From a virus: a DNA stretch of 41,082 nt. The notes under the pieces are model-generated. The model was not told the origin of the DNA, did not search any database, and worked only from the letters and a program-made list of their open reading frames with translations. Below are positions 10,742 through 41,082 of the stretch, one piece after another (the first letter of the stretch is position 1; the number at the start of each line of letters is the position of its first letter). The stretch lies in IMG/VR virus record IMGVR_UViG_3300030238_000004, positions 1 through 41,082 of that record; one strand, given 5' to 3'. The translations under genes and the position numbers were made by a program.

Positions 10742-10764
10742 TCTCCCTATAGTGGGTGTTAATT
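10742..10764 (-). promoter_or_regulatory. Phage RNAP promoter (consensus)
   Basis: AATTAACACCCACTATAGGGAGA, followed by GGGGGACTAAAAG. Confidence 0.9.
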
Positions 10765-12913: not shown

Positions 12914-12954
12914 AATATGTCTCCTTTGTTAATTAATGATTAAGATTATTCATA

Positions 12955-12977
12955 GAAGCCACCTTAAAGATGACTTC
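12955..12977 (-). promoter_or_regulatory. Conserved intergenic stem-loop (RNase III-site-like)
   Basis: RNA GAAGUCAUC-UUUAA-GGUGGCUUC, 9 bp including G.U pairs. Confidence 0.55.
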
Positions 12978-12982
12978 GAGTA

Positions 12983-13005
12983 TATTCCTATAGTGGGTGT
13001 TTCAA
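12983..13005 (-). promoter_or_regulatory. Phage RNAP promoter overlapping the DNAP stop codon
   Basis: TTGAAACACCCACTATAGGAATA. Confidence 0.75.
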
Positions 13006-15038
13006 TGGCAAATCGCCCAGTTACCACCTTTCTTACCTTCAGTATCCAGAGGACACTTAAAGTTCCAGTGTTCACCAACTCGACGCATAGCTTCTTGAGC
13101 AATACGAATAGAGTCATCAGCAATAGCATCTGTACGACAAGCAAGTTGAGCTTCATCGTGAACCCATGCCATAAAGCAATAGTCACCGTCCCAACCGTGT
13201 TTGTAGCCAGCAGCTTTCATACCCCTGTCCCATTCCACAATCCACTTCTTACAGATTAATGCACCAGCAGACTGAAGGAGAGTGTTAAGAGCAGCATGAG
13301 GAGAACGAACGTGGACTTTACGACCATCAAGACCTTTAATCCATTTACGTTTCCATTTGATTTGCTGAGTACCACCAATCCATTTAGCTTCCTTAATGAG
13401 CACTTCTTGTACCTGTTCACGTAGAGCAGCAATAGCAGGAGTGTTATTCAGGAAGTCTTCGATTAGAGCTTTACCCCGTTTATTACCTTCGGCACCGAAA
13501 GCCCCTACGATTTGTCCAATCTTTTCAGCACCAGCCCCATATAGGAATCCGTAGATGAAGGTCTTAGCGTTATCACGAGTCGGTAGCTTTGCAGCCATTT
13601 GGTTTGCTGTATGAATGTCACCGTTAAGGATAACATCAATATACTCACCGTTATCGAAACGAGCCATGAAGTGTCCTAAACAACGAAGTTCAAGACCTGA
13701 AGCATCGACACCAACTTGTACCCAAGGTTTACCTGTAGCAAAGTCACGATGATGTTCAGCACCAAATAAGCTACGACATTCAACACCTTTGTACTTACGG
13801 ATACTTGGTACTTGAGCAAGGTTAGGGAAGCTATGAGTTGCACGACCAGTTACAGCACCATTAGGATTAACGTTACCATGAATGTATCCATCCTTTTGTA
13901 GACGTAACCATGCGTTATCACCTTCTGCAAGTTGACCGATAAGTTTCTGAATAGTCAGATACTCTTTAATCAATTCAACTTTAGGTAAGAACTCATCGGG
14001 AATTAGACCATGTTCAATAACAAGAGTCAGAGTCTCATCGTCTACAACAGGTTTACCAGCATCAGAAAATGATGTAGGAATCCAGCCACAGTCTTTAAGA
14101 ACCTTGATGATGTTATCACGAGAACTTGGATTGAATGTAATGTGTTTCAACGGAGTGAATGGAGCATCTTTAAAGTAAAGAGTCTTGCTCAGAGTTGGTT
14201 TCTTAGCAGCAGTATACATACTACCAGCTTTAGGGTACTTCACACGAGGATACTTATGCAGCTCCTTACCAGTGCGAGGGTGAAGGAAGATTTGTGTTCC
14301 TCCTTTTGGCTCATACCAAGAGCCGAATGTGGTGGTCAATTCAATAAGAATATCACTACGACGAGCAGCAGTTTCACAATACAGTCTTTCAGCAGAGTCA
14401 ACGTCAAACGCATAACCATTACGTTGTTGTTTAGCCATTAACCATGCAGCTTCATGTTCAAGTAGAACACTTTCAGATAAACCTTCAGCACCATTAGGGA
14501 AGTACCAACCATCTTTCATGAACTTGTCAAACAGTTGTCGAGTTACCTCAACGTCTTGCTTACAGTAGTCCATCATTGGTTCGTTAAACTCAACCCATGC
14601 AGCTTCTTGTTCACCATAGTCACCCTTAAAGCAACCAAGACGCATACCCCAAGCCTTTAGAGCATGAGAGCCATACATTTTACCTGTGATACGACCTGAG
14701 CGTAGAAGACCAGCATCAGTATCTTTAAGGTTTGAATGAAGAAGACGAGATATTACAAGAGTGTCCAGTACGTTCTTCTTAGGGATATTTAGATTCTTCC
14801 CGAAGTGTTTCTTCTTGAGAATCTTTAAGGCTGGATGGTCATACCCAATCCCGTTATGGAAGCAGATAAGACCACCTTCTGCAGCGCATTGTTCAAGGTC
14901 TTTGATGTAATCAGCGAAGTCTGAAGGGCGGTAAGCCTTCCATTCACCAGTGAAGTAATCAACAGTCCATGAGCAGTGAAATTTACTAACAGTGTCTAAT
15001 AGACCATCTGTTTCGATATCGGTAATGAGTAGACGCAT
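13002..15038 (-). CDS. DNA polymerase (T7 gp5-like, family A)
   Basis: Long collinear similarity to T7 gp5: NPNGAVTGRATHSFPNLAQVP, RDNAKTFIYGFLYGAG, GLDGRKVHVRSPHAALNTLLQSAGALICK, C-terminus NWAICH. Confidence 0.97.
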   Translation of the reverse strand: MRLLITDIETDGLLDTVSKFHCSWTVDYFTGEWKAYRPSDFADYIKDLEQCAAEGGLICFHNGIGYDHPALKILKKKHFGKNLNIPKKNVLDTLVISRLLHSNLKDTDAGLLRSGRITGKMYGSHALKAWGMRLGCFKGDYGEQEAAWVEFNEPMMDYCKQDVEVTRQLFDKFMKDGWYFPNGAEGLSESVLLEHEAAWLMAKQQRNGYAFDVDSAERLYCETAARRSDILIELTTTFGSWYEPKGGTQIFLHPRTGKELHKYPRVKYPKAGSMYTAAKKPTLSKTLYFKDAPFTPLKHITFNPSSRDNIIKVLKDCGWIPTSFSDAGKPVVDDETLTLVIEHGLIPDEFLPKVELIKEYLTIQKLIGQLAEGDNAWLRLQKDGYIHGNVNPNGAVTGRATHSFPNLAQVPSIRKYKGVECRSLFGAEHHRDFATGKPWVQVGVDASGLELRCLGHFMARFDNGEYIDVILNGDIHTANQMAAKLPTRDNAKTFIYGFLYGAGAEKIGQIVGAFGAEGNKRGKALIEDFLNNTPAIAALREQVQEVLIKEAKWIGGTQQIKWKRKWIKGLDGRKVHVRSPHAALNTLLQSAGALICKKWIVEWDRGMKAAGYKHGWDGDYCFMAWVHDEAQLACRTDAIADDSIRIAQEAMRRVGEHWNFKCPLDTEGKKGGNWAICH

Positions 15039-20668: not shown

Positions 20669-20691
20669 AGTTTCCTATAGTGGGTGTTAAT
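20669..20691 (-). promoter_or_regulatory. Phage RNAP promoter
   Basis: AATTAACACCCACTATAGGAAAC. Confidence 0.8.
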
Positions 20692-20704
20692 TAAGATTAT
20701 TCAT

Positions 20705-20727
20705 AAAGCCCACCTTAAAGATGAGCT
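20705..20727 (-). promoter_or_regulatory. Conserved intergenic stem-loop (RNase III-site-like)
   Basis: RNA AAGCUCAUC-UUUAA-GGUGGGCUU. Part of a ~60-bp module that is near-identical to 12944-13005. Confidence 0.55.
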
Positions 20728-20732
20728 TGAGT

Positions 20733-20755
20733 ATATTCCTATAGTGGGTGTTAAA
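20733..20755 (-). promoter_or_regulatory. Phage RNAP promoter overlapping the HNH stop codon
   Basis: TTTTAACACCCACTATAGGAATA. Confidence 0.75.
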
Positions 20756-21185
20756 ATGGTAAAGCAAGATGCGCTTCTTCTTCAGTCTCGAAGAAACCAT
20801 AATGTTTACCTTTGAAACGAGCTTGCCATTTACCTTTCTGTTTATTCCAGATTACATAATCAAAGCGTGATTGTTTCTCAGAGCTATTACTACGGTTTCT
20901 GTTATTAGCAGACCGTGTAGTTTCTCTTAGATTTTCAATACGATTATCATGTTTAATACGGTTAATGTGGTCAAGGTCTTTCTCAGGTAATTCACCATAA
21001 TAAAGACACCAAGCTACTCTGTGAGCTAATAATGTCTTCTGCTCACCATTAACAGTTGTTGTTGTTAAGTGAAGATAACCTAAACCATTCTTACAGGTAA
21101 CAGGTTTTCCACAACGCTTCTTAGTGATAATCCCAGTGATAGGGTCATAAGAATAACGTTCATGGATTATCTTAACTATGGTCAT
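20751..21185 (-). CDS. HNH homing endonuclease (HNH + AP2-like C-terminal domain)
   Basis: LLAHRVAWCLYYGELPEKDLDHINRIKHDNRIENLR...N, then GKWQARFKGKHYGFFETEEEA. Confidence 0.85.
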   Translation of the reverse strand: MTIVKIIHERYSYDPITGIITKKRCGKPVTCKNGLGYLHLTTTTVNGEQKTLLAHRVAWCLYYGELPEKDLDHINRIKHDNRIENLRETTRSANNRNRSNSSEKQSRFDYVIWNKQKGKWQARFKGKHYGFFETEEEAHLALPF

Positions 21186-22476: not shown

Positions 22477-22499
22477 GTCTCCTATAGTGGGTGTTAATT
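22477..22499 (-). promoter_or_regulatory. Phage RNAP promoter
   Basis: AATTAACACCCACTATAGGAGAC. Confidence 0.85.
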
Positions 22500-23481
22500 A
22501 AGATTTGATACCTTCAGAGCCTTCCATATCACGCCAGCGTTGGAATGATGGATGACGTAGCGAACCACTTGGTGTCATCTCCATGTACTTCACTTGAGCT
22601 TGGCGACCATTGAAAGAGTCTTCACCGTGTTGTTCAACATGATAAGTCCATTGGTTCATTTCAAATTGAGAGGCATTGTTAGCATCAACTACAGAACCAG
22701 ATTCAAGTAAGACTTGGAAACCGATAACTTTACCTTCATTAGATAAACCTTCAGTACCCCAATTGATACCAACTACAACACCATCAGCTTCATCTTCAGG
22801 CTTCATCTTGAACCAACCAGTTTTCTTACCACGTTTCCAGCGACACATAGGGTCTTTAATAACAAGACCTTCATGACCAGCTTCACGCTTTGCATTATAT
22901 AAGGCTTCAAGTTCACTCATGTGGTAAACGTCATGAGATTCTGCAAGATGCCATGAAAGTTCAGGGAACAATTCTTTTACTTGATGAATCAACACTTCAG
23001 TTTGCATCTGCATAACACAAGTAGAAACTGGAATGTCTGCTTTAGTGTCTGCCTTAATAGCTTCAAGCGAAAGGATACCATAAATCATGTATTCCAATTG
23101 TGAAGCCTTGATAGGAGTCTTACGACGAAGTAAGCCACTACCAGTATTAAAATCAACACCTTTAACCATCACTTCACCATCAATCATAAGACCAGCAGGG
23201 TATAGGGATTCAGCTAATAGTTGACCTAAAAGAACTCGATAAGCTTCAGTTGAGAATAGTTCACGTAAAGACGGAATCACTTTGTTTGTACGAGATAAAG
23301 CATATAGACGAGCACTTGGCTTGCCTTGAATGTCTTCCGCAGGAACGATACATAAGTGACATCTTAAACCGTCATATTTCGTTTGAACGATTAGAGAACC
23401 ACTGTTAGCCAATGCTTTTTCGATAGCAGATTGTTTGTAGTTCACAGCTTTAAAAGGGTTAATGTTGATGTTAATATTCAT
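22498..23481 (-). CDS. ATP-dependent DNA ligase (T7 gp1.3-like)
   Basis: Adenylation motif TKYDGLRCH (KxDG), EGLVIKD, and C-terminal LRHPSFQRWR. Confidence 0.9.
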   Translation of the reverse strand: MNINININPFKAVNYKQSAIEKALANSGSLIVQTKYDGLRCHLCIVPAEDIQGKPSARLYALSRTNKVIPSLRELFSTEAYRVLLGQLLAESLYPAGLMIDGEVMVKGVDFNTGSGLLRRKTPIKASQLEYMIYGILSLEAIKADTKADIPVSTCVMQMQTEVLIHQVKELFPELSWHLAESHDVYHMSELEALYNAKREAGHEGLVIKDPMCRWKRGKKTGWFKMKPEDEADGVVVGINWGTEGLSNEGKVIGFQVLLESGSVVDANNASQFEMNQWTYHVEQHGEDSFNGRQAQVKYMEMTPSGSLRHPSFQRWRDMEGSEGIKS

Positions 23482-23514: not shown

Positions 23515-23537
23515 TATTCCTATAGTGGGTGTTAATT
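23515..23537 (-). promoter_or_regulatory. Phage RNAP promoter (proximal of a tandem pair upstream of ligase)
   Basis: AATTAACACCCACTATAGGAATA. Confidence 0.8.
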
Positions 23538-23646
23538 ATATCCCTGTAACCTTTCATCACCAACCCGTAACAATAACCCTCTTACAGTACACACATACAC
23601 ACTATGAGGAGGACTTAAAGATAACATATAGTAACCTTTAGTCCCC
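23538..23646 (-). repeat. Copy L of a dispersed direct repeat (partner 29781-29930)
   Basis: atccctgtaacctttcatcaccaacccgtaac + aataaccctcttacagtacacac...tatgaggaggacttaaagataacatatagtaacctttagtcccc both recur at the right end, with a few substitutions and indels. Confidence 0.85.
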
Positions 23647-23669
23647 TCTCCCTATAGTGGGTGTTAATT
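23647..23669 (-). promoter_or_regulatory. Phage RNAP promoter (consensus; distal of the tandem pair)
   Basis: AATTAACACCCACTATAGGGAGA followed by GGGGACTAAAGG. Confidence 0.9.
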
Positions 23670-23701: not shown

Positions 23702-23729
23702 CAAAAAGCCCCATCCGAAGACAGGGCTT
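23702..23729 (-). terminator. Rho-independent terminator immediately after the RNAP gene (early terminator TE analogue)
   Basis: RNA AGCCCUGUC-UUCG-GAUGGGGCU followed by UUUUUG. It starts ~7 nt after the RNAP stop. Confidence 0.75.
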
Positions 23730-23735
23730 AAAGTA

Positions 23736-26426
23736 TTAACTAAATGTGTAAAGTGATTTCAGAATCTCACGGATATCTAAGTTACCTTTACTTGGTAGAG
23801 CTGGCATCTTCTCAAGTTGAGACTCATGAAGTTGTTCAGCGAACTCCTCGAAGAACTCAGCGATTACATCATGTTCTTCATAAGTGTCTACAAGAACTTG
23901 GCGAACCTGTTCAAACATCACATGAGCGAAACCAGCATGACAACCGAAAGAGTCATGAATCATAGCGAAAGAGTGAACACCGTGACGAGCACAAGCGTTA
24001 ACTGTTAGCTGTAAGTGGCTTGCATCCATTGAGTGAATGAAGTTAGGGGCGATACCTGAAGCCTGTTTTGCAGCGTCAATCTCAGGGCGGCCATCTTTAC
24101 CAGTTTTGTCACCAGTGTTAACAGTCACACGGATACGTTGCTGGCCCATGAAGATAAGGTCGATACGCTTTTGGTCTTGCTTAGTGTACTCAGACCATAC
24201 AGGGAAACCAGCAGGAGTCGTCCAGTGTACAGGCATTGCTGGCTTAAGGATTTCCCCTGTCTTCTTCTCTTTAACAACAGCAGAGACAAGTTTAGCAGAA
24301 GACTGTAACCATTCCATTGCTTCAACAGCAGCGATAACAGTAGTCTTAACAGCATTCCAGATTAGTTTAGCCATACCACGAGCATACTGAGAAGCATCAC
24401 GAGCATCACCAAACATAGCACCCTTACCAGAGTCGATAGCTGGCTGGATGGTATCTTCAAGAACTTGGTCGGCAAAACCGTATTCTTTAGAACCATAAGC
24501 CAGTGTCATTACTGAGCGTTTAGTTACACCACGGTTCACACCGAACTCAAGCCATACACGAGCGATACGCTTAGTACCAAACGCAAGACGTTCAACGATT
24601 TCACCTGTCTTCTTGTCTTCCTTGGTCTCGTAGTAATCCTCAGTGCCATTCTCAAGCATATCCTGAAGAACAACGTTTACCTTGTCAGCTACGATACCGT
24701 AAATGTCTTGAGGCTTAGGACTTGGAGTAAGGTTAACAGCAGCACCACCCACTTCATCACGAAGCATTGCAGAGAAGTGTTGTAGACCAGAACAAGTACC
24801 ATCGAAAGCAAGTGGTAGTTGAGATTCAAACAGTTCAGACTTACCAGATTCACAGTAAGCAGCCCACTCGAAGCAGAATGCAAGGAAACAGAACGGTGAA
24901 TCCTGTTCAGCCCACCAAGTGTTATCTAAAGGGGCTTTAGCTGAAGCAATGATGTTAGCTTCGTTATCAGCAACCCATTGTACACGGTCATCAAGAGAAA
25001 CCTTGTCAACACCAGCACAGTTAGAACCATGAACAGCCAGCCAGTAACCACCTTGAGAGCCTACAGGTATTTTATTAGCGAAAATCAGTAAGCCTTTAGT
25101 CATATCGTTACCTTGTGGGTTAAACATTGGGATAGCGTATACACGACCACGCCAGTCCATGTTGTAAGGGAAGTAAATAGAGCCGTACTTAGAGAACTTG
25201 TTAGCTTGCTCAAGGGCAAACTCAAGGCTTAGACGACGAGATTGACGAGCTTTCTCTTTACGGTAGATAACAGCAGCATTCTTCTTCCATTTCTTCATAC
25301 GGTCAGCATCAAGAACTTCACCAGTTTCAGGACACACAACGCCGTCTTCCATCGCTGGTTTGTCAGCTTTGTTTAGACTTGGTACATCTTCAACAGGACA
25401 CTCATCCCAGTTAACAACTTGATTAACAACAGCAAGAACATCACCATTGATTTGCCATGCAGTCTCTTGAACAGTGTTGATTGAAGCGTACACATCAGGC
25501 ATATCAACGTCCATATAACGCTGTAGAGCACGTTTAGAGCCTACACGAATCAAGTTAAGAGGACGGCGACCTTTAGCCCAGTAGCCACCACCTTTCACAC
25601 CATTCCATTTCTTAGGTGGAACAATCATAGGTTGGAACATTGGAGAGATACCAGCCAGAGCATGAGCACGAGTCGTTAGACGCTCGATGTAGTCAGGGGC
25701 AAGGCGTACAAGTTCCTGAGCAGTAGCGCCAGCATGAGCACGTTCCATAACCACCAAGTTAGTAGACTCGATGACCATTTCAATCAGACGAATACCGAGG
25801 TTCATCTTGTCCATCTTGTCCCAAGGCTTCCAAGTGTCGTTCAGTTCACCTTTGTCCAGCATACCAGCTTCAACAGCTTGCATGTATGCCTTCTTGAAAA
25901 TCATACCGTTACGCTTATCAAGGTTAGGTTTCACACGTTGTTTAAAGTGTTGAGCTTCCTGTTCACGGATACGACCAAACTGTACTTCATCTTCGATGTT
26001 GTTAGCGATAGTCGAAGCCACACGTTGTAGGTCAGCAGATTCTTCCTTAGCCAAGACCATTAGGATTGACTTGATAGTAATCACAGCCATTGAATCAGAA
26101 GGACACTGTTTGAATAGGTTCTTCCATACAGGCGGTTTACCTTTACCACCAGCATTCTTGAAGTCCTCAATGTGAGCATGTAGAGCAGGGATAAGAGTGT
26201 CTAACAGAGGTTTAGCGATAGCGTTGTCACAAACTTCACCACGGTTAATTTGACGTTCCAGAGCCTTCATAAAGCGAGCTTCACCAAGAGTGTAAGACTC
26301 ATGTTCAAGCAGCAACTGTTCAGCAGCAAGGTCTTGCCCGAAGTTATCAGCCAGTACATTGTAAGGCATGATTGCATGAGCGATTTCAGAGAAGTTATTC
26401 AGTTCAGGTTTAATCACGTTTGACAT
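23736..26426 (-). CDS. Single-subunit DNA-dependent RNA polymerase (T7 gp1-like)
   Basis: 896 aa vs 883. ASGIAPNFIHSMDASHL, FAMIHDSFG and LHESQLEKMPALPSKGNL parallel T7 RNAP. Confidence 0.97.
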   Translation of the reverse strand: MSNVIKPELNNFSEIAHAIMPYNVLADNFGQDLAAEQLLLEHESYTLGEARFMKALERQINRGEVCDNAIAKPLLDTLIPALHAHIEDFKNAGGKGKPPVWKNLFKQCPSDSMAVITIKSILMVLAKEESADLQRVASTIANNIEDEVQFGRIREQEAQHFKQRVKPNLDKRNGMIFKKAYMQAVEAGMLDKGELNDTWKPWDKMDKMNLGIRLIEMVIESTNLVVMERAHAGATAQELVRLAPDYIERLTTRAHALAGISPMFQPMIVPPKKWNGVKGGGYWAKGRRPLNLIRVGSKRALQRYMDVDMPDVYASINTVQETAWQINGDVLAVVNQVVNWDECPVEDVPSLNKADKPAMEDGVVCPETGEVLDADRMKKWKKNAAVIYRKEKARQSRRLSLEFALEQANKFSKYGSIYFPYNMDWRGRVYAIPMFNPQGNDMTKGLLIFANKIPVGSQGGYWLAVHGSNCAGVDKVSLDDRVQWVADNEANIIASAKAPLDNTWWAEQDSPFCFLAFCFEWAAYCESGKSELFESQLPLAFDGTCSGLQHFSAMLRDEVGGAAVNLTPSPKPQDIYGIVADKVNVVLQDMLENGTEDYYETKEDKKTGEIVERLAFGTKRIARVWLEFGVNRGVTKRSVMTLAYGSKEYGFADQVLEDTIQPAIDSGKGAMFGDARDASQYARGMAKLIWNAVKTTVIAAVEAMEWLQSSAKLVSAVVKEKKTGEILKPAMPVHWTTPAGFPVWSEYTKQDQKRIDLIFMGQQRIRVTVNTGDKTGKDGRPEIDAAKQASGIAPNFIHSMDASHLQLTVNACARHGVHSFAMIHDSFGCHAGFAHVMFEQVRQVLVDTYEEHDVIAEFFEEFAEQLHESQLEKMPALPSKGNLDIREILKSLYTFS

Positions 26427-26615: not shown

Positions 26616-26638
26616 CTTTAACACCCACTATAGGGAGT
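26616..26638 (+). promoter_or_regulatory. Phage RNAP promoter on the + strand (antisense to all genes)
   Basis: CTTTAACACCCACTATAGGGAGT read on the + strand, +1 at 26633. Identical to consensus from -15 to +5. Right arm of the 18-bp inverted repeat. Confidence 0.6.
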
Positions 26639-29012: not shown

Positions 29013-29120
29013 GTCCTAATTTCAATAAATACTAAAATAATTGTTATATGCCTATAATCTGTACAATCTTATAGTTCCCTCTATATAGGCTTAATCTGTA
29101 CTCTTGATGATATCCTTTAG

Positions 29121-29162
29121 GAGTATGTCTTGAGGAGTATGTCTTGAGGAGTATGTCTTGAG
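29121..29162. repeat. 14-bp x3 tandem repeat (gagtatgtcttgag)
   Basis: Read directly; a partial 4th copy lies at 29198-29210. Confidence 0.9.
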
Positions 29163-29245
29163 GATATCCTTATGTACTACTTCTACTTCTACTTCATGAG
29201 TATGTCTTGATGATATCCTTATGTACTACTTCATGAATACATACA

Positions 29246-29363
29246 GATAAACACAATGATAAACATAATGATAAACACTTACAGATAAACATAATGATAA
29301 ACATAATGATAAACACAATGATAAACACAATGATAAACACTTACAGATAAACATAATGATAAT
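29246..29363. repeat. Array of ~10 GATAAACA(C/T)AAT units (12- or 14-bp period)
   Basis: gataaacacaat gataaacataat gataaacacttaca ..., read directly. Confidence 0.9.
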
Positions 29364-29389
29364 CTTGATGATATCCTCTTGTATATGGT

Positions 29390-29437
29390 CTTGATGATTG
29401 TCTTTAAGAGGTACTTGATGATTGTCTTTAAGAGGTA
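29390..29437. repeat. 24-bp x2 tandem repeat (cttgatgattgtctttaagaggta)
   Basis: Read directly; abuts the palindrome at 29436-29450. Confidence 0.9.
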
Positions 29438-29450
29438 CCCTATGGGGGTA
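29436..29450. other. Near-palindrome TACCCCCATAGGGTA, resembling the CCCCCATAGGGGGTACC element ~25 nt from the T7 left end
   Basis: - strand ...AGACCACAGATACCCCCATAGGGTACCTCTTAAAG versus recalled T7 nt 1-50 TCTCACAGTGTACGGACCTAAAGTTCCCCCATAGGGGGTACCTAAAG. Confidence 0.5.
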
Positions 29451-29497
29451 TCTGTGGTCTTGCTTAGATTAGATGGTCACTCAGATTTTTCTGATAG

Positions 29498-29561
29498 TTT
29501 TCTTATCGACTTTCTTATCGACTTTCTTGATGATAATCTTGATGATAAACTTGATGTAGCA
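29498..29561. repeat. Two adjacent 12-bp repeat sets: tttcttatcgac x2, then cttgatgata(at/aa) x3
   Basis: Read directly. Confidence 0.85.
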
Positions 29562-29658: not shown

Positions 29659-29784
29659 CTATGCAGTGATTAATGTAATAGTAATTCCATGGAGAAACCA
29701 CTCAATGAAAGACTCACCTTCGCACCACAAGAGAACATAGAGTAATACTTGGAGTAGGAATGGTCTTAGTTGTTTAATAACCAT
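29659..29784 (-). CDS. Small hydrophobic ORF (41 aa) at the T7 gene 19.5 position
   Basis: ATG 29784 with AAGAGGG 8 nt upstream. MVIKQLRPFLLQVLLYVLLWCEGESFIEWFLHGITITLITA. The longer track ORF spans the promoter. Confidence 0.4.
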   Translation of the reverse strand: MVIKQLRPFLLQVLLYVLLWCEGESFIEWFLHGITITLITA

Positions 29785-29930
29785 AACAATAACCCTCTTA
29801 CAGTACACACTATGAGGAGGACTTAGAGATAACATAAAGATAACATATAGCTTATAGTAACCTTTAGTCCCCCCCTCCCTATAGTGGGTGTTAATTACAT
29901 CCCTGTAACCTTTTATCACCAACCCATAAC
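29781..29930 (-). repeat. Copy R of the dispersed direct repeat (partner 23515-23669), including the terminase 3' end and the right-end promoter
   Basis: See copy L; same strand and same order of sub-elements, rotated. Confidence 0.85.
29874..29896 (-). promoter_or_regulatory. Phage RNAP promoter after the terminase gene (phiOR analogue)
   Basis: AATTAACACCCACTATAGGGAGG followed by GGGGGACTAAAGG. Confidence 0.85.
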
Positions 29931-31670
29931 ATTGAGTCCTGAGTAGTCATCATCGTCGTCGTCCTGATTAATCATAATCTCCATGTTACCACTGAGCATC
30001 TGTACGTGAGACTGGTCAGCTTGGAGAGCATCCTTACCGAGCATTTCCTCAAGCCATTCAGCAGTACAGTCATCAGCACCAGACTTAGCATCACGCTCTA
30101 ACTGTTCCACGAAGTACGCTACACCAATCGCAAAGGCATCCAATCGGTCATCATGAGCCAAAGCTCCACGTTCACGAGTAAGACGACTTAGTTGATAGAA
30201 CAATGAGTATTTAACATCATGTACTCCATCAGTGTTACGAGCAGTCTGATAGTCCTTCTGGATTGAAGATTCCATAACAACGATACGGTGAGAACCCATC
30301 ACAGGCTCTAAGGTATCCGCTATACGCATTTCTTTCTGACCTGTACTCTTTGTTTCAGTAAGAGCACAATTATGAATACGATGCAGCACAGGGCTTAGAA
30401 TCTTAAGGTACATACCATCACCAAAGTTACCTTCTACAAGGACTTCGTTAACGTTCCAGCGTTTAGCTACTTTAGCAAGTTCTTCAAGAGTCTTGTCTTC
30501 ATAGCCTCCACGGAAACCACCAGCTTCCATAAGATAGATATAACCATTTAGGAAGTATAACACTGCATAACCAGTTTCATCCTTACCACGACCAGAAGGG
30601 TCAATAGCCATAATCTTAGCGGTGTACGTAGAGCTACGCTTATCAGCAGTCTCATAGCGATGGAATGTATCACCTTTAAGACCAATCTGAGGGACGCTCT
30701 GTAAGAGGTTCTGAGGGTTCGGAAGCCAACCGTAGGTCAATGGTGCTTTATCAGTTTCCAATGCAGCTACGATGAAATCACGGACTTTCAGAGGGTATCT
30801 CTCAGCATCACTAAGGTTAGGGTTAAGCATGTATTGCATCTCAAAACCAGCTTTACCATAAGATAGCTCACGTTCACGCAAGTCTTCATCATCGAAGCGC
30901 ACAGGGTCACATGGAGTCCAAAAGAATGCTTCAGGGTTATCACCCATATCTTCCATAAGCATAGGAGCTAAACGGTCGCCATAAGCATCTAATGAAGCTC
31001 GGTCTTTAGGGTAACGTGCAGTCCAGATAGTTGTCTTATAACCACGTCCCTCAAGCTCTCTGTAAAGAGTCTGTTCGCATTGTGGAGTCCCTAAGTATGT
31101 GATAACACCACTTGGTTTAAGAATAGCATCAAACTCTTTCACAAGCTCACCAAGACGGTCACGAGCCATTTGAGTTGAACTGTTATTAGGAACTTCAACG
31201 TCATCTGCTAAGATGTAATCGGCACGACTACCCGTTAACTGACCTGTAATACCTACTGATTTCACAGAGGGTGAATGGTCAGGTTTAGCTAACCCAACAT
31301 CAAAGCTGATTACAGAATCACGTTGTCCCTGTTTAGGTTTTAGCTCCTCAAGGAAAGGTAGTAGTTCAATAATACGTTTGATAAAGATTGAGTTAGAGTC
31401 GGCCCGTTCCTTACTTGCAGATACAATTAAGAATTTCAACTGTGGGTTATTCCAAAGCTTCCATACTACGAATGCACATAGAAGAAACGATTTTCCAATC
31501 CCTCGAAATGCTTGAAGGATGAATCTACGGCTATCACCCGAAGCTACCTTGCGTGCCATATCCACCTGTGACCTTGTAGGTGGTGGTAAGTTTAAAGCCT
31601 TCCATAGTACCATTACGAATAATACAAAGTCATTCTTAATAGCTTGTAGTTGTTTCTGTTCTTTATTCAT
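29916..31670 (-). CDS. Terminase large subunit (T7 gp19-like)
   Basis: 584 aa vs 586. Walker A-like [15 protein letters not shown], nuclease-domain [12 protein letters not shown]. Last large gene before the repeat region. Confidence 0.9.
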
Positions 31671-32097
31671 ATAAACCTCCTCTGATTTCTTCTCTGATTC
31701 GTATCGCTTCCTCTAAAGTTTTAGATGTAGTTCTGATACGTTTACCTTTACGCATTACTTCAATAGCATAACCATTTTGATGAACGCTAATGTTCTTCTC
31801 TTTAAGCTTGTTATCTTTGTGTGTGCTTGTATTCCAAGAGTTATCAGCAGAGTCAACTAAGCGTAGATTAGAAAGTTTATTATTCTTACGGTTTCTGTCA
31901 ATATGGTCAATCACCATACCCTCAGGAATCTCTCCGTTAATAATCTCCCATATAACTCTGTGAGCTAACTTGAGTCCAAATTTTACTGTCTTGACTTGAT
32001 AATAGCCATGATTACCAACACAACCTAAATGTCTTCCTGTCTTCTTGTTAATTAAACATGAAGGACTTTCTTCATTATAAGCATAATGATTGTTCAT
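31663..32097 (-). CDS. HNH homing endonuclease
   Basis: [44 protein letters not shown]. Its 3' end overlaps the terminase start. Confidence 0.85.
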
Positions 32098-35340: not shown

Positions 35341-35363
35341 TCTCCCTATAGTGGGTGTTTATT
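35341..35363 (-). promoter_or_regulatory. Phage RNAP promoter upstream of the tail fiber gene
   Basis: AATAAACACCCACTATAGGGAGA followed by GGGGACTAAAGG. Confidence 0.85.
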
Positions 35364-40600: not shown

Positions 40601-41082
40601 TAAGTTTAGCTTGTAGATGTTCTTTAGAATCCACGTTCTTCAATAAAGCTTCATAAGCTGTAGATGGTAGACCAGAGTCAATGATAGTCTTACGGTCTTC
40701 ATCATCAGGAGTATAGAACATACCTTGGTCTGGTGCAATTTGAGCAAGACCTTTAGATACACTTCCTGTCTCAAGACCAACCATAAGACCAGTACCCATG
40801 ACACTTGTACCAGCACCTACAGCAGCAGAATCAACAAGACTCCAATCATCATCGGCAATCTGATATTCAGTAGCTTTGCTATTAGCATCACCACCTTGCA
40901 TCAAGATGTTCAAATCTGTAGGCATCATTGAGGAATCTGGTTGTTCTTTAGGTTCTTTAGGTTCAGGGATAAGTTCACCACCACTTGTATCCAGTTTATT
41001 ATGATGAGTATCCTTAGTATCAAATAGATTCTGGAAGTTGTCATCAGCAGCACTGAAAGGAACATCACGAGGTGCGGTCTTA
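37638..41082 (-). CDS. Internal virion/ejection protein (T7 gp16-like), C-terminal ~1115 codons. The true start is ATG 602 across the junction, giving 1315 aa in total.
   Basis: The frame stays open upstream of the listed ATG 40928 to the window end. LDKYAMNYAYGV...LPDGTEWSPFKL...SVNGQIAINAVTGK parallels recalled T7 gp16 VEKYAMDKAYGI...MPDGQQFSVNDL...RVNGDIAIMGSTGK. 1315 aa vs 1318. Confidence 0.85.
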   Translation of the reverse strand, partial: KTAPRDVPFSAADDNFQNLFDTKDTHHNKLDTSGGELIPEPKEPKEQPDSSMMPTDLNILMQGGDANSKATEYQIADDDWSLVDSAAVGAGTSVMGTGLMVGLETGSVSKGLAQIAPDQGMFYTPDDEDRKTIIDSGLPSTAYEALLKNVDSKEHLQAKLKVIQQNVKFQDKVNEQGMSHQVAMGLGDFTGDPFSYVPLGYANLANKAFKGTKIINNRLVPQLAESLTTTYLSEKYLRNGITGVEADVGGALIGATVMVTGMAGVSKGLDSMMRRVSNSETALNTGREDPTYNTADMHPQGERTVVDEDTEVLQSGRVMTRGIIDEPVAGEARSDLRFWQHDSITTALKDKATASTAMLFDTPVQGFKDTEFTTSAPTINNVVRNLNDRDNEVFSLWDDYREAEFQRGQSLGKYQSLEDVDVEFKMILDNHDNMDLTTLTPSQKIMIKAYQEFATRHAEFIKDPSRVSGKQGAPAVAENMIDDMNWRTRTYNRLAVNEFVSKFDNPEAAQRMFADAIKKAFHEDMNAARKAYNEKVIREELEVVAEGELAADVLPDELLDKYAMNYAYGVINNGNTTMFDTDMFEGTTTRKTDHFKTRMNIPLHGKVNLPDGTEWSPFKLEYNDFGAQMRSYSTSVNGQIAINAVTGKHVKDFSKEIDAMAKQSEGGKALKSMLDNVLRNSPYDKYTNIDVASDTLRDATLGLTSAMTHTANMVEVFGNLHRQGVVPAAMKHIVKALGKDLQKIMRMQPKTLKREFGTMMMGKALTRRMNMTREDYVNQLMTRVDKSDNASKALANLRYGVALTVDKLPWVRAMRYIHEGMIDAGNQVALDEMLRVSRGMVKGRMLKDTSIVSDKFLQANNIPREVADKAIAHLKLLPDGIDVKTEDLPSDFDMTSWMNSPDTMNVMRLVHAFNDELMAKTDNVGQTLVQPSGAFGRLFWMYKRFATVSTQILSRNAGEIKDLGRVGRMVGVLTAGGLATMHYVGTTVYKASAIDDKYEREKYLDDNLSLDKIAAASLKRHPMLAGWNMIYDGFGGMVNAPYAGIGKTTFEDVAGTYAGRGETSQSFLADVTRNGLGMVAPARVVGAAGAATFNAGHLAWNALDDEHLRYNQEKNVEKALYKSLETFVPNEPHMRKLYKQLTTLFQE
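40984..41082. repeat. Terminal assembly overlap (identical to 1-99)
   Basis: Exact 99-nt identity with the window start. Confidence 0.95.

Follow-up and report, generated by a model that had tools for sequence, protein, structure and literature searches.

In bacteriophage T7, the tandem promoters phi1.1A and phi1.1B are the primary origins of replication and phiOR is a secondary origin (PMC8373140). The phi1.1A/phi1.1B region consists of two promoters of the same direction 3' of the RNA polymerase (RNAP) gene, a structured transcribed spacer and an AT-rich stretch that comes after. The spacer is a unique RNase III hairpin, R1.1, which is unrelated to the phiOR region of T7, and genes 1.1 and 1.2 follow. 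The promoter phiOR lies between the terminase gene and the small gene 19.5, and phiPorf54 of phage ICP3 is likewise found between terminase and a small 19.5-like open reading frame (ORF). Besides the terminal repeat, T7 contains no intragenomic repeats of more than 42 nt. The phi10 leader of T7 begins with a 5'-terminal hairpin of the kind predicted at the locus described here, as is characteristic of the class III stem-loop leaders, and RNase III processing sites of the T7 type are hairpins with a conserved CCUUUAUGAUUG-type motif.

Rearrangements involving short repeats are also on record for T7. Experimental evolution of T7 produced a 154-bp tandem duplication that includes phi13 and is located next to gene 1 (PMC3737178). 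Deletions between short direct repeats have been documented as well (Studier 1979; Kong & Masker 1994, as cited in PMC5630979).

The locus described here shares with the phi1.1A/phi1.1B region the two same-direction promoters 3' of the RNAP gene and the structured transcribed spacer, and the low-GC sequence after its second promoter may be the counterpart of the AT-rich stretch. It differs in having an early terminator before the promoter pair, a DNA ligase gene directly after it, and a spacer that is a permuted copy of the phage's own phiOR region. At the right genome end, the phage resembles T7 and ICP3 in carrying a promoter between terminase and a small 19.5-like ORF. Compared to phiOR and phiPorf54, however, this promoter lies less than 20 nt from the terminase stop codon without an intervening hairpin, and the unit containing it has also been copied to a second site.

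Genome organization and relatives

The window, which is the whole stretch of DNA that was analysed (41,082 nt), begins and ends with the same 99 nt (positions 1-99 and 40984-41082, an exact overlap). It is therefore a circularly closed assembly with a unique length of 40,983 bp, in which the terminal repeat is collapsed. The closest relatives in GenBank are the Vibrio cholerae phages ICP3, VP4, and N4 (Studiervirinae, Chatterjeevirus), with nucleotide identities of approximately 70% in the RNAP and ligase genes and 81-83% in the terminase gene. All long ORFs are on the minus strand, and the 23-bp T7-type promoter (consensus TAATTAACACCCACTATAGG(G)A) is found 22 times on that strand and once on the plus strand. 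The order on the minus strand is terminase, phiOR-equivalent promoter, 19.5-like ORF, concatemer-junction repeats, sigma-70 promoters, early genes (including S-AdoMet lyase and kinase genes), RNAP, terminator, tandem phage promoters, and DNA ligase. The landmarks are as follows.

29916..31670, minus strand: terminase large subunit gene (584 aa), C-terminus homologous to that of ICP3 (DFSGLNLCGF*)
29659..29784, minus strand: 19.5-like small ORF (41 aa), positional homologue of ICP3 orf54
about 29560-29100, minus strand: concatemer-junction repeats
29012, 28764, 28590, minus strand: three strong sigma-70 promoters
23736..26426, minus strand: T7-type single-subunit RNAP gene (896 aa), with Pfam RPOL_N and RNA_pol on the identical gene of assembly L028 and a match to ICP3 gene 1
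23706..23729, minus strand: intrinsic terminator directly 3' of the RNAP gene (10-bp stem, 4-nt loop, T-run)
22498..23481, minus strand: ATP-dependent DNA ligase gene, the first gene 3' of the tandem promoters

The terminator is the end of the early transcription unit read by the host RNAP, and an equivalent hairpin is present at the same post-RNAP place in ICP3 and in the metagenomic relative L032.

Several other features of the genome were observed. The concatemer-junction region contains arrays of 12- to 14-nt tandem repeats (29099-29400 and 29133-29550), and its length varies among near-identical strains, L028 being without about 317 nt and L029 differing too. Two genes for HNH_3 homing-endonuclease-like proteins of 144 aa each are found on the minus strand (31663-32097 and 20751-21185), one of them directly upstream of the terminase gene and overlapping it. 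The L029 strain is 99.1% identical to the window as far as ligase extends. Past that point (L029 11002-11542 compared to the window below about 22480), the identity drops abruptly to 75% and the ORF content is different, so that there is a mosaic boundary immediately behind ligase, coinciding with the next promoter. The single plus-strand promoter is a perfect match at 26618-26634, TTAACACCCACTATAGGGAGTAC, facing 26593-26577 on the minus strand. It stands back to back with the promoter upstream of RNAP, in the gap after the kinase gene, and transcription from it would be antisense to the entire early region and would proceed in the direction of the left genome end. No opposite-strand promoter was found in ICP3, L032, or L033.

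A permuted copy of the right-end region after the RNAP gene

The tandem promoter pair (23669-23515) is located directly 3' of the RNAP stop at 23736. Read on the minus strand from 23669 to 23519, about 152 nt show the order promoter P2, leader Y, segment X, and promoter P1; this is copy A. At the right end, a unit of 143 bp from 29931 to 29789 shows the order X, which is the terminase 3' end, then phiOR, then leader Y; this is unit (or copy) B. Their parts are listed below.

23647..23669, minus strand: promoter P2, the more upstream of the two tandem promoters, of the phiOR type; class III-like start GGGAGA with +1 at 23652
23606..23652, minus strand: 5' hairpin of the phiOR leader in copy A, GGGAGAGGGGACUAAAGG...CUUUAAGUCCUCCUC, predicted fold about -21 kcal/mol
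23573..23605, minus strand: remainder of leader Y in copy A, where the GT tract is expanded by 8 nt and a remnant of the ribosome-binding site for the 19.5-like ORF persists
23565..23572, minus strand: Y/X junction, TGTTACGG, which is the 8-bp microhomology TGTTATGG in mutated form
23538..23572, minus strand: segment X in copy A, where the final terminase codons with their stop and 3' flank are repeated in non-coding form
23515..23537, minus strand: promoter P1, resident ligase (phi1.3-type) promoter, start GGAATAA
29897..29931, minus strand: segment X in unit B, with terminase codons V-M-G-W, stop codon and flank, starting with the first TGTTATGG
29874..29896, minus strand: phiOR-equivalent promoter, +1 at 29879, in the position of ICP3 phiPorf54 and T7 phiOR
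29789..29879, minus strand: phiOR leader Y in unit B, consisting of a 5' hairpin (29814-29879) and a remainder (29789-29813)
29781..29788, minus strand: second TGTTATGG, which holds the ATG of the 19.5-like ORF

P1 and P2 each match the 17-nt promoter core at 17 of 17 positions, in the same orientation and 132 nt apart, and among the promoters of the early/middle region the GGGAGA start is a feature of P2 alone.

Copy A is colinear from end to end with a head-to-tail dimer of unit B. With indels excluded, 143 positions could be aligned, of which 139 match and 4 do not; the four indels are of 1, 7, 11, and 8 nt. Segment X, with the promoter included, is 94% identical between the copies over 54 nt. 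The two copies are in direct orientation and 6227 nt apart. In a self-BLAST of the 41-kb genome they appeared as two pieces (E = 1e-21 and 7e-17), forming the largest repeat apart from the assembly overlap. The predicted stem of the leader hairpin is the same in both copies, the extra 7 and 11 nt of copy B being in the loop.

Generic similarity between promoter flanks was gauged by comparing the flanks across all 231 promoter pairs. Among upstream flanks the top score was that of phiOR and P1 (28, median 6.5), and among downstream flanks that of phiOR and P2 (45, median 7). A few other late promoters (at 35361, 10762, and 2431) have in common no more than some 20 nt beyond the start site, GGGAGAGGGGACTAAAGG.

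The limits and the internal joint of copy A are both at recognizable sequences. First, homology between the copies goes no further than the promoter consensus, ending at position -21 in P2 and position +2 in P1. The flank upstream of P2, (GGTTTT)3GAGGG, is proper to copy A, and the sequence downstream of P1, GGAATAATCC.., is like the ligase-promoter starts of ICP3 phiPgene1.3 (GGAATTAAC) and L032 (GGAATAAC). Second, TGTTATGG is found at 29931-29924, where it codes for terminase ..N-V-M-G.., and at 29788-29781, thus flanking unit B; beyond the two unit ends it has one further occurrence on that strand. The Y/X junction is the only place where the end of Y meets the start of X, and this novel joint of copy A coincides with the 8-bp direct repeat that flanks the source, although it now reads TGTTACGG. 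Copy A is a circular permutation of unit B, which goes beyond a mere reshuffling of parts.

These results bear out most of an earlier note on this DNA. The note had described a repeat that extends beyond the promoter, as the alignment, the self-BLAST, and the promoter-flank scores now show, and a rotated order of its elements at the right end, which corresponds to the dimer-colinear permutation. Its first element is indeed the terminase end (..NVMGW*), and the ATG of the 19.5-like ORF does read ACG in the 23.5-kb copy. The differences that it had reported in the length of the CA/GT tract and of the G-run are also seen in the alignment. It had further listed indels of 7 and 12 nt; the former stands, and the larger one is 11 nt in the alignment.

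Source and age of the copy

Comparison with relatives, which the earlier note had named as the way to learn which copy is ancestral, points to the right end. Segment X in unit B is real terminase coding sequence, with a product that can be aligned to the C-terminus of the ICP3 protein. In the same unit, Y ends with the ribosome-binding site and start of the 19.5-like ORF, common to ICP3 orf54. The same sequences in copy A are non-coding, with the start codon ATG changed to ACG. Since both ends of unit B are in contexts shared with ICP3 and copy A is non-coding, the right-end unit is the source and the 23.5-kb copy the derived one. In the hairpin loop, copy A is closer than copy B to ICP3. Local slippage would have followed in both copies, with 7-nt and 11-nt tandem duplications in the hairpin loop of B and an 8-nt duplication in the GT tract of A.

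The copies have diverged by about 3% substitution and four indels, compared to at most 1% between strains, which suggests that the duplication is older than the strains sampled.

Proposed route of duplication

On balance, copy A probably derives from the 143-bp right-end unit as an ectopic and circularly permuted duplicate, which would have arisen at a microhomology, been inserted between promoter limits, and left a promoter and leader plus a scar. In this scheme, slippage or a template switch on the 8-bp TGTTATGG, equivalent to a 143-bp tandem duplication of X-phiOR-Y, would yield a promoter-Y-X-promoter segment. By recombination or copy-choice within the 23-bp promoter repeats, the segment would then replace the spacer of ancestral tandem promoters 3' of the early terminator. 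Each copy would subsequently drift by local slippage and by substitutions, four in all. The scheme is based on the colinearity with the dimer, the junction on TGTTATGG, and the ending of homology at the promoter limits, and P1 is taken as the resident ligase promoter because its start sequence is like that of the relatives' ligase promoters.

A second promoter-anchored duplicated module was found on the minus strand at 12939-13012 and 20690-20763 (74 nt, 88% identity), consisting of a promoter and a 47-nt hairpin spacer. At 20754/20690 an intact second promoter comes after it, giving a tandem pair 64 nt apart, and at 13003 it is followed by a decayed promoter remnant. This second module was counted in favour of the proposed route.

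Two other routes were considered. In the first, phiOR and the ligase promoter would undergo one unequal crossover in a concatemer; it was rejected, since such an exchange could not leave X lying between Y and P1. In the second, a 143-bp circle would be excised and then integrated, which formally amounts to the proposed route, although so small a circle is physically unlikely.

Compared to the duplication that arose in evolved T7, the one described here is similar in containing a promoter, in being about 150 bp long, and in its intergenic position after the RNAP gene. The T7 duplication is tandem, in place, and in an engineered genome, whereas the present one arose naturally, is circularly permuted, lies at an ectopic site 6.2 kb from its source, and is older, its copies being about 3% diverged with 4 indels.

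Spacers of relatives and the search for a pre-insertion allele

The layout of terminator, two tandem promoters, and ligase is retained in ICP3 and L032, with promoter starts 70 and 35 nt apart and spacers of about 50 and 19 nt, respectively. These spacers are unrelated to each other, unique in each genome, and unlike the phiOR region of the phage that carries them. In L033, the post-RNAP site has one promoter only. Collectively, these comparisons show that the tandem-promoter architecture is conserved and its spacer turns over quickly, and that the spacer has been filled from the right end only in this phage, compared to ICP3, L032, and T7. Because the spacers of those three phages are unrelated to their own phiOR regions, the sharing is a lineage-specific duplication and no general property of the two sites.

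Sequences from before or during the insertion were sought in several collections. A BLAST search of the Y-X cassette against GenBank phages matched nothing but the 46 nt at its start, which form the hairpin, and did so at class III promoters in the ICP3 group. Exact scans of IMG/VR gave no match for the leader core and none for the promoter, and all ligase relatives in IMG/VR were at most 45% identical. In a search of 5.8 billion proteins, no ligase fell between 62% and 100% identity, and the contigs with the exact ligase were only strains at least 99% identical, which carry the same copies A and B. Thus, neither a pre-insertion allele nor a right-end tandem-duplication intermediate was found in the IMG/VR, metagenome, and protein searches. 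Every strain seen has kept the cassette in full, which would also be compatible with selection for more than a promoter.

A promoter scan of metagenomes returned 18 contigs, none of them related to the window by tblastx, and these contigs are uninformative for the A/B duplication. Eight from JGI metagenomes (L036, L038, L042, L044, L047, L048, L052, and L053) contain exact matches of 25-27 nt to the full promoter, AATTAACACCCACTATAGGGAGAC. Three of these (L042, L044, and L048) have two promoter copies about 755-760 nt apart, flanking repeat-rich, concatemer-junction-like DNA; the L044 contig is 189.9 kb long. The only Pfam families on the promoter-bearing contigs were DUF4365 and DUF6971. Judging from the promoter matches, such contigs may represent another phage lineage or element with the same RNAP specificity.

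Predicted transcription of the cassette

From its sequence, P2 is predicted to act as a phiOR-type, class III-like promoter. Its transcript would start with the phiOR 5' hairpin, cross the dead ribosome-binding site with its ACG, continue through the terminase fragment and P1, and enter the ligase and middle genes. Hairpins at the 5' end, formed by the GGGAGA start and a downstream pyrimidine run, are predicted for the majority of GGGAGA leaders, both here and in ICP3. As in the class III stem-loop leaders such as phi10, GGGAGA pairs with a downstream pyrimidine run in the duplicated leader, the hairpin of which is longer, with a predicted stem region of about 17 bp. The CCUUUAUGAUUG-type RNase III motif, which is seen in T7 R1.1 and upstream of several promoters of this phage, is absent from the Y-X cassette, and Rfam gave no family match in the window. 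We infer that the cassette may serve mainly as a strong upstream promoter and stabilising leader before the ligase promoter, and that the remainder would be a scar of passenger DNA.

Elsewhere in the genome, the motif GCCTTTATGAT(T/A) occurs just upstream of the minus-strand promoters at 10762, 17626, 20690, and 28377. This motif matches the conserved part of the T7 RNase III sites, of which R1.1 and R0.5 share GAGTGGCCTTTATGATT, and the sites in this phage are probably RNase III processing hairpins.

Correspondence to the T7 origins

A different explanation is that the shared module is a replication-origin element maintained by selection, in which phiOR and its G-rich leader would prime DNA synthesis at both sites. 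By analogy with T7 this would be conceivable, and we consider it unlikely. As the earlier note had pointed out, the two sites match in position phi1.1A/phi1.1B, after gene 1, and phiOR, between genes 19 and 19.5, which are the primary and secondary origins of T7 (PMC8373140). A phage promoter is present between terminase and the 19.5-like ORF near the right end, and approximately the first 28 nt transcribed from phiOR are conserved with T7 and ICP3; the phiOR start sequence GGGAGAGG.GGGAC.AAAGGTTACTATA is common to T7 and this phage, and the phiOR region gives a BLAST piece of 86% identity to ICP3 over 52-58 nt. In addition, the 79 nt after P1, which overlap the ligase start codons, have 29% GC compared to 40.5% for the genome, and the cassette is unchanged in all strains seen.

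Several observations argue against such an element. First, T7, ICP3, and L032 have no spacer sequence common to both sites, so sharing is unnecessary for origin function. Second, the cassette includes obvious passenger DNA, namely the terminase codons and the dead start codon. Third, leader Y is not AT-rich (38.5% GC). Conservation among strains that are at least 99% identical says little, and cumulative GC and AT skew gave no origin signal in this genome, nor at the primary origin of T7, which was used as a control, so that skew was set aside as an indicator. The post-RNAP site itself may well be an origin, by analogy with T7.

A related but still less likely proposal is that the phiOR promoter and leader form a portable origin, or R-loop priming module, that was recruited to the primary-origin site. 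On this view, the 23-bp promoters of T7-like phages would more generally act as recombination handles by which functional cassettes change place. If this were true, replication would start from two identical modules bracketing the packaging junction and the early region.

Recombination between the copies

The two direct repeats might instead be a working recombination substrate, allowing exchange, deletion, or amplification of the 6.2-kb block of terminal repeat, early region, and RNAP gene in concatemers; this seems improbable. That the copies bracket such a block, as the earlier note had proposed, is correct, as the junction repeats, the three sigma-70 promoters, and the RNAP gene all lie within the 6227 nt between them. 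Uninterrupted identity between the copies, which are in direct orientation, extends to about 45 nt at most, and T7 is known to recombine and delete between short direct repeats (cited in PMC5630979). However, a deletion would remove the RNAP gene and the packaging junction and would be lethal or produce a defective phage, the indels cut the homology into short blocks, and there is no hint of selection for such use. Recombinant joints, either terminase-X-P1-ligase or RNAP-P2-Y-19.5, were found in none of the assemblies.

Assembly support

A look-up of the exact ligase protein retrieved two long assemblies (L028 and L029), which come from different samples and were made with different assemblers, and two short Logan unitigs (L030 and L031) from two further sequencing runs. 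Both long assemblies contain the 254-nt intergenic region between RNAP and ligase and the right-end region exactly. Each unitig has one end inside P2 and, at 100% identity, spans Y, X, and P1 and reaches into ligase. Since copy A has substitutions and indels of its own, misplacement of B could not have produced it, and the 23.5-kb copy does not stem from faulty assembly.

De Bruijn assemblies do break and misjoin at repeats, the Logan unitigs do end inside P2, and promoter-flanking motifs do recur among T7-like genomes, but it is very improbable that the repeat is an artefact or a convergent regulatory motif with no true duplication behind it, given that copy A with its own changes lies inside single unitigs and two differently built long assemblies, and that convergence is ruled out by the terminase codons and dead start codon within the repeat, which it cannot explain.

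Significance

The duplication is a variant of the promoter-linked duplications already known in T7-type phages and no new kind of system. It documents in nature, with unusual clarity, the reshuffling of regulatory DNA in these phages: an 8-bp microhomology would have supplied the joint and the scattered 23-bp promoters the homology arms. The outcome would be a late-type promoter and leader placed before the middle genes, at the site of the primary origin of T7. The phage would thus provide a natural test case for two issues: whether phiOR-type leaders carry an origin or mRNA-stability function, and what ectopic direct repeats cost a phage that replicates through concatemers.
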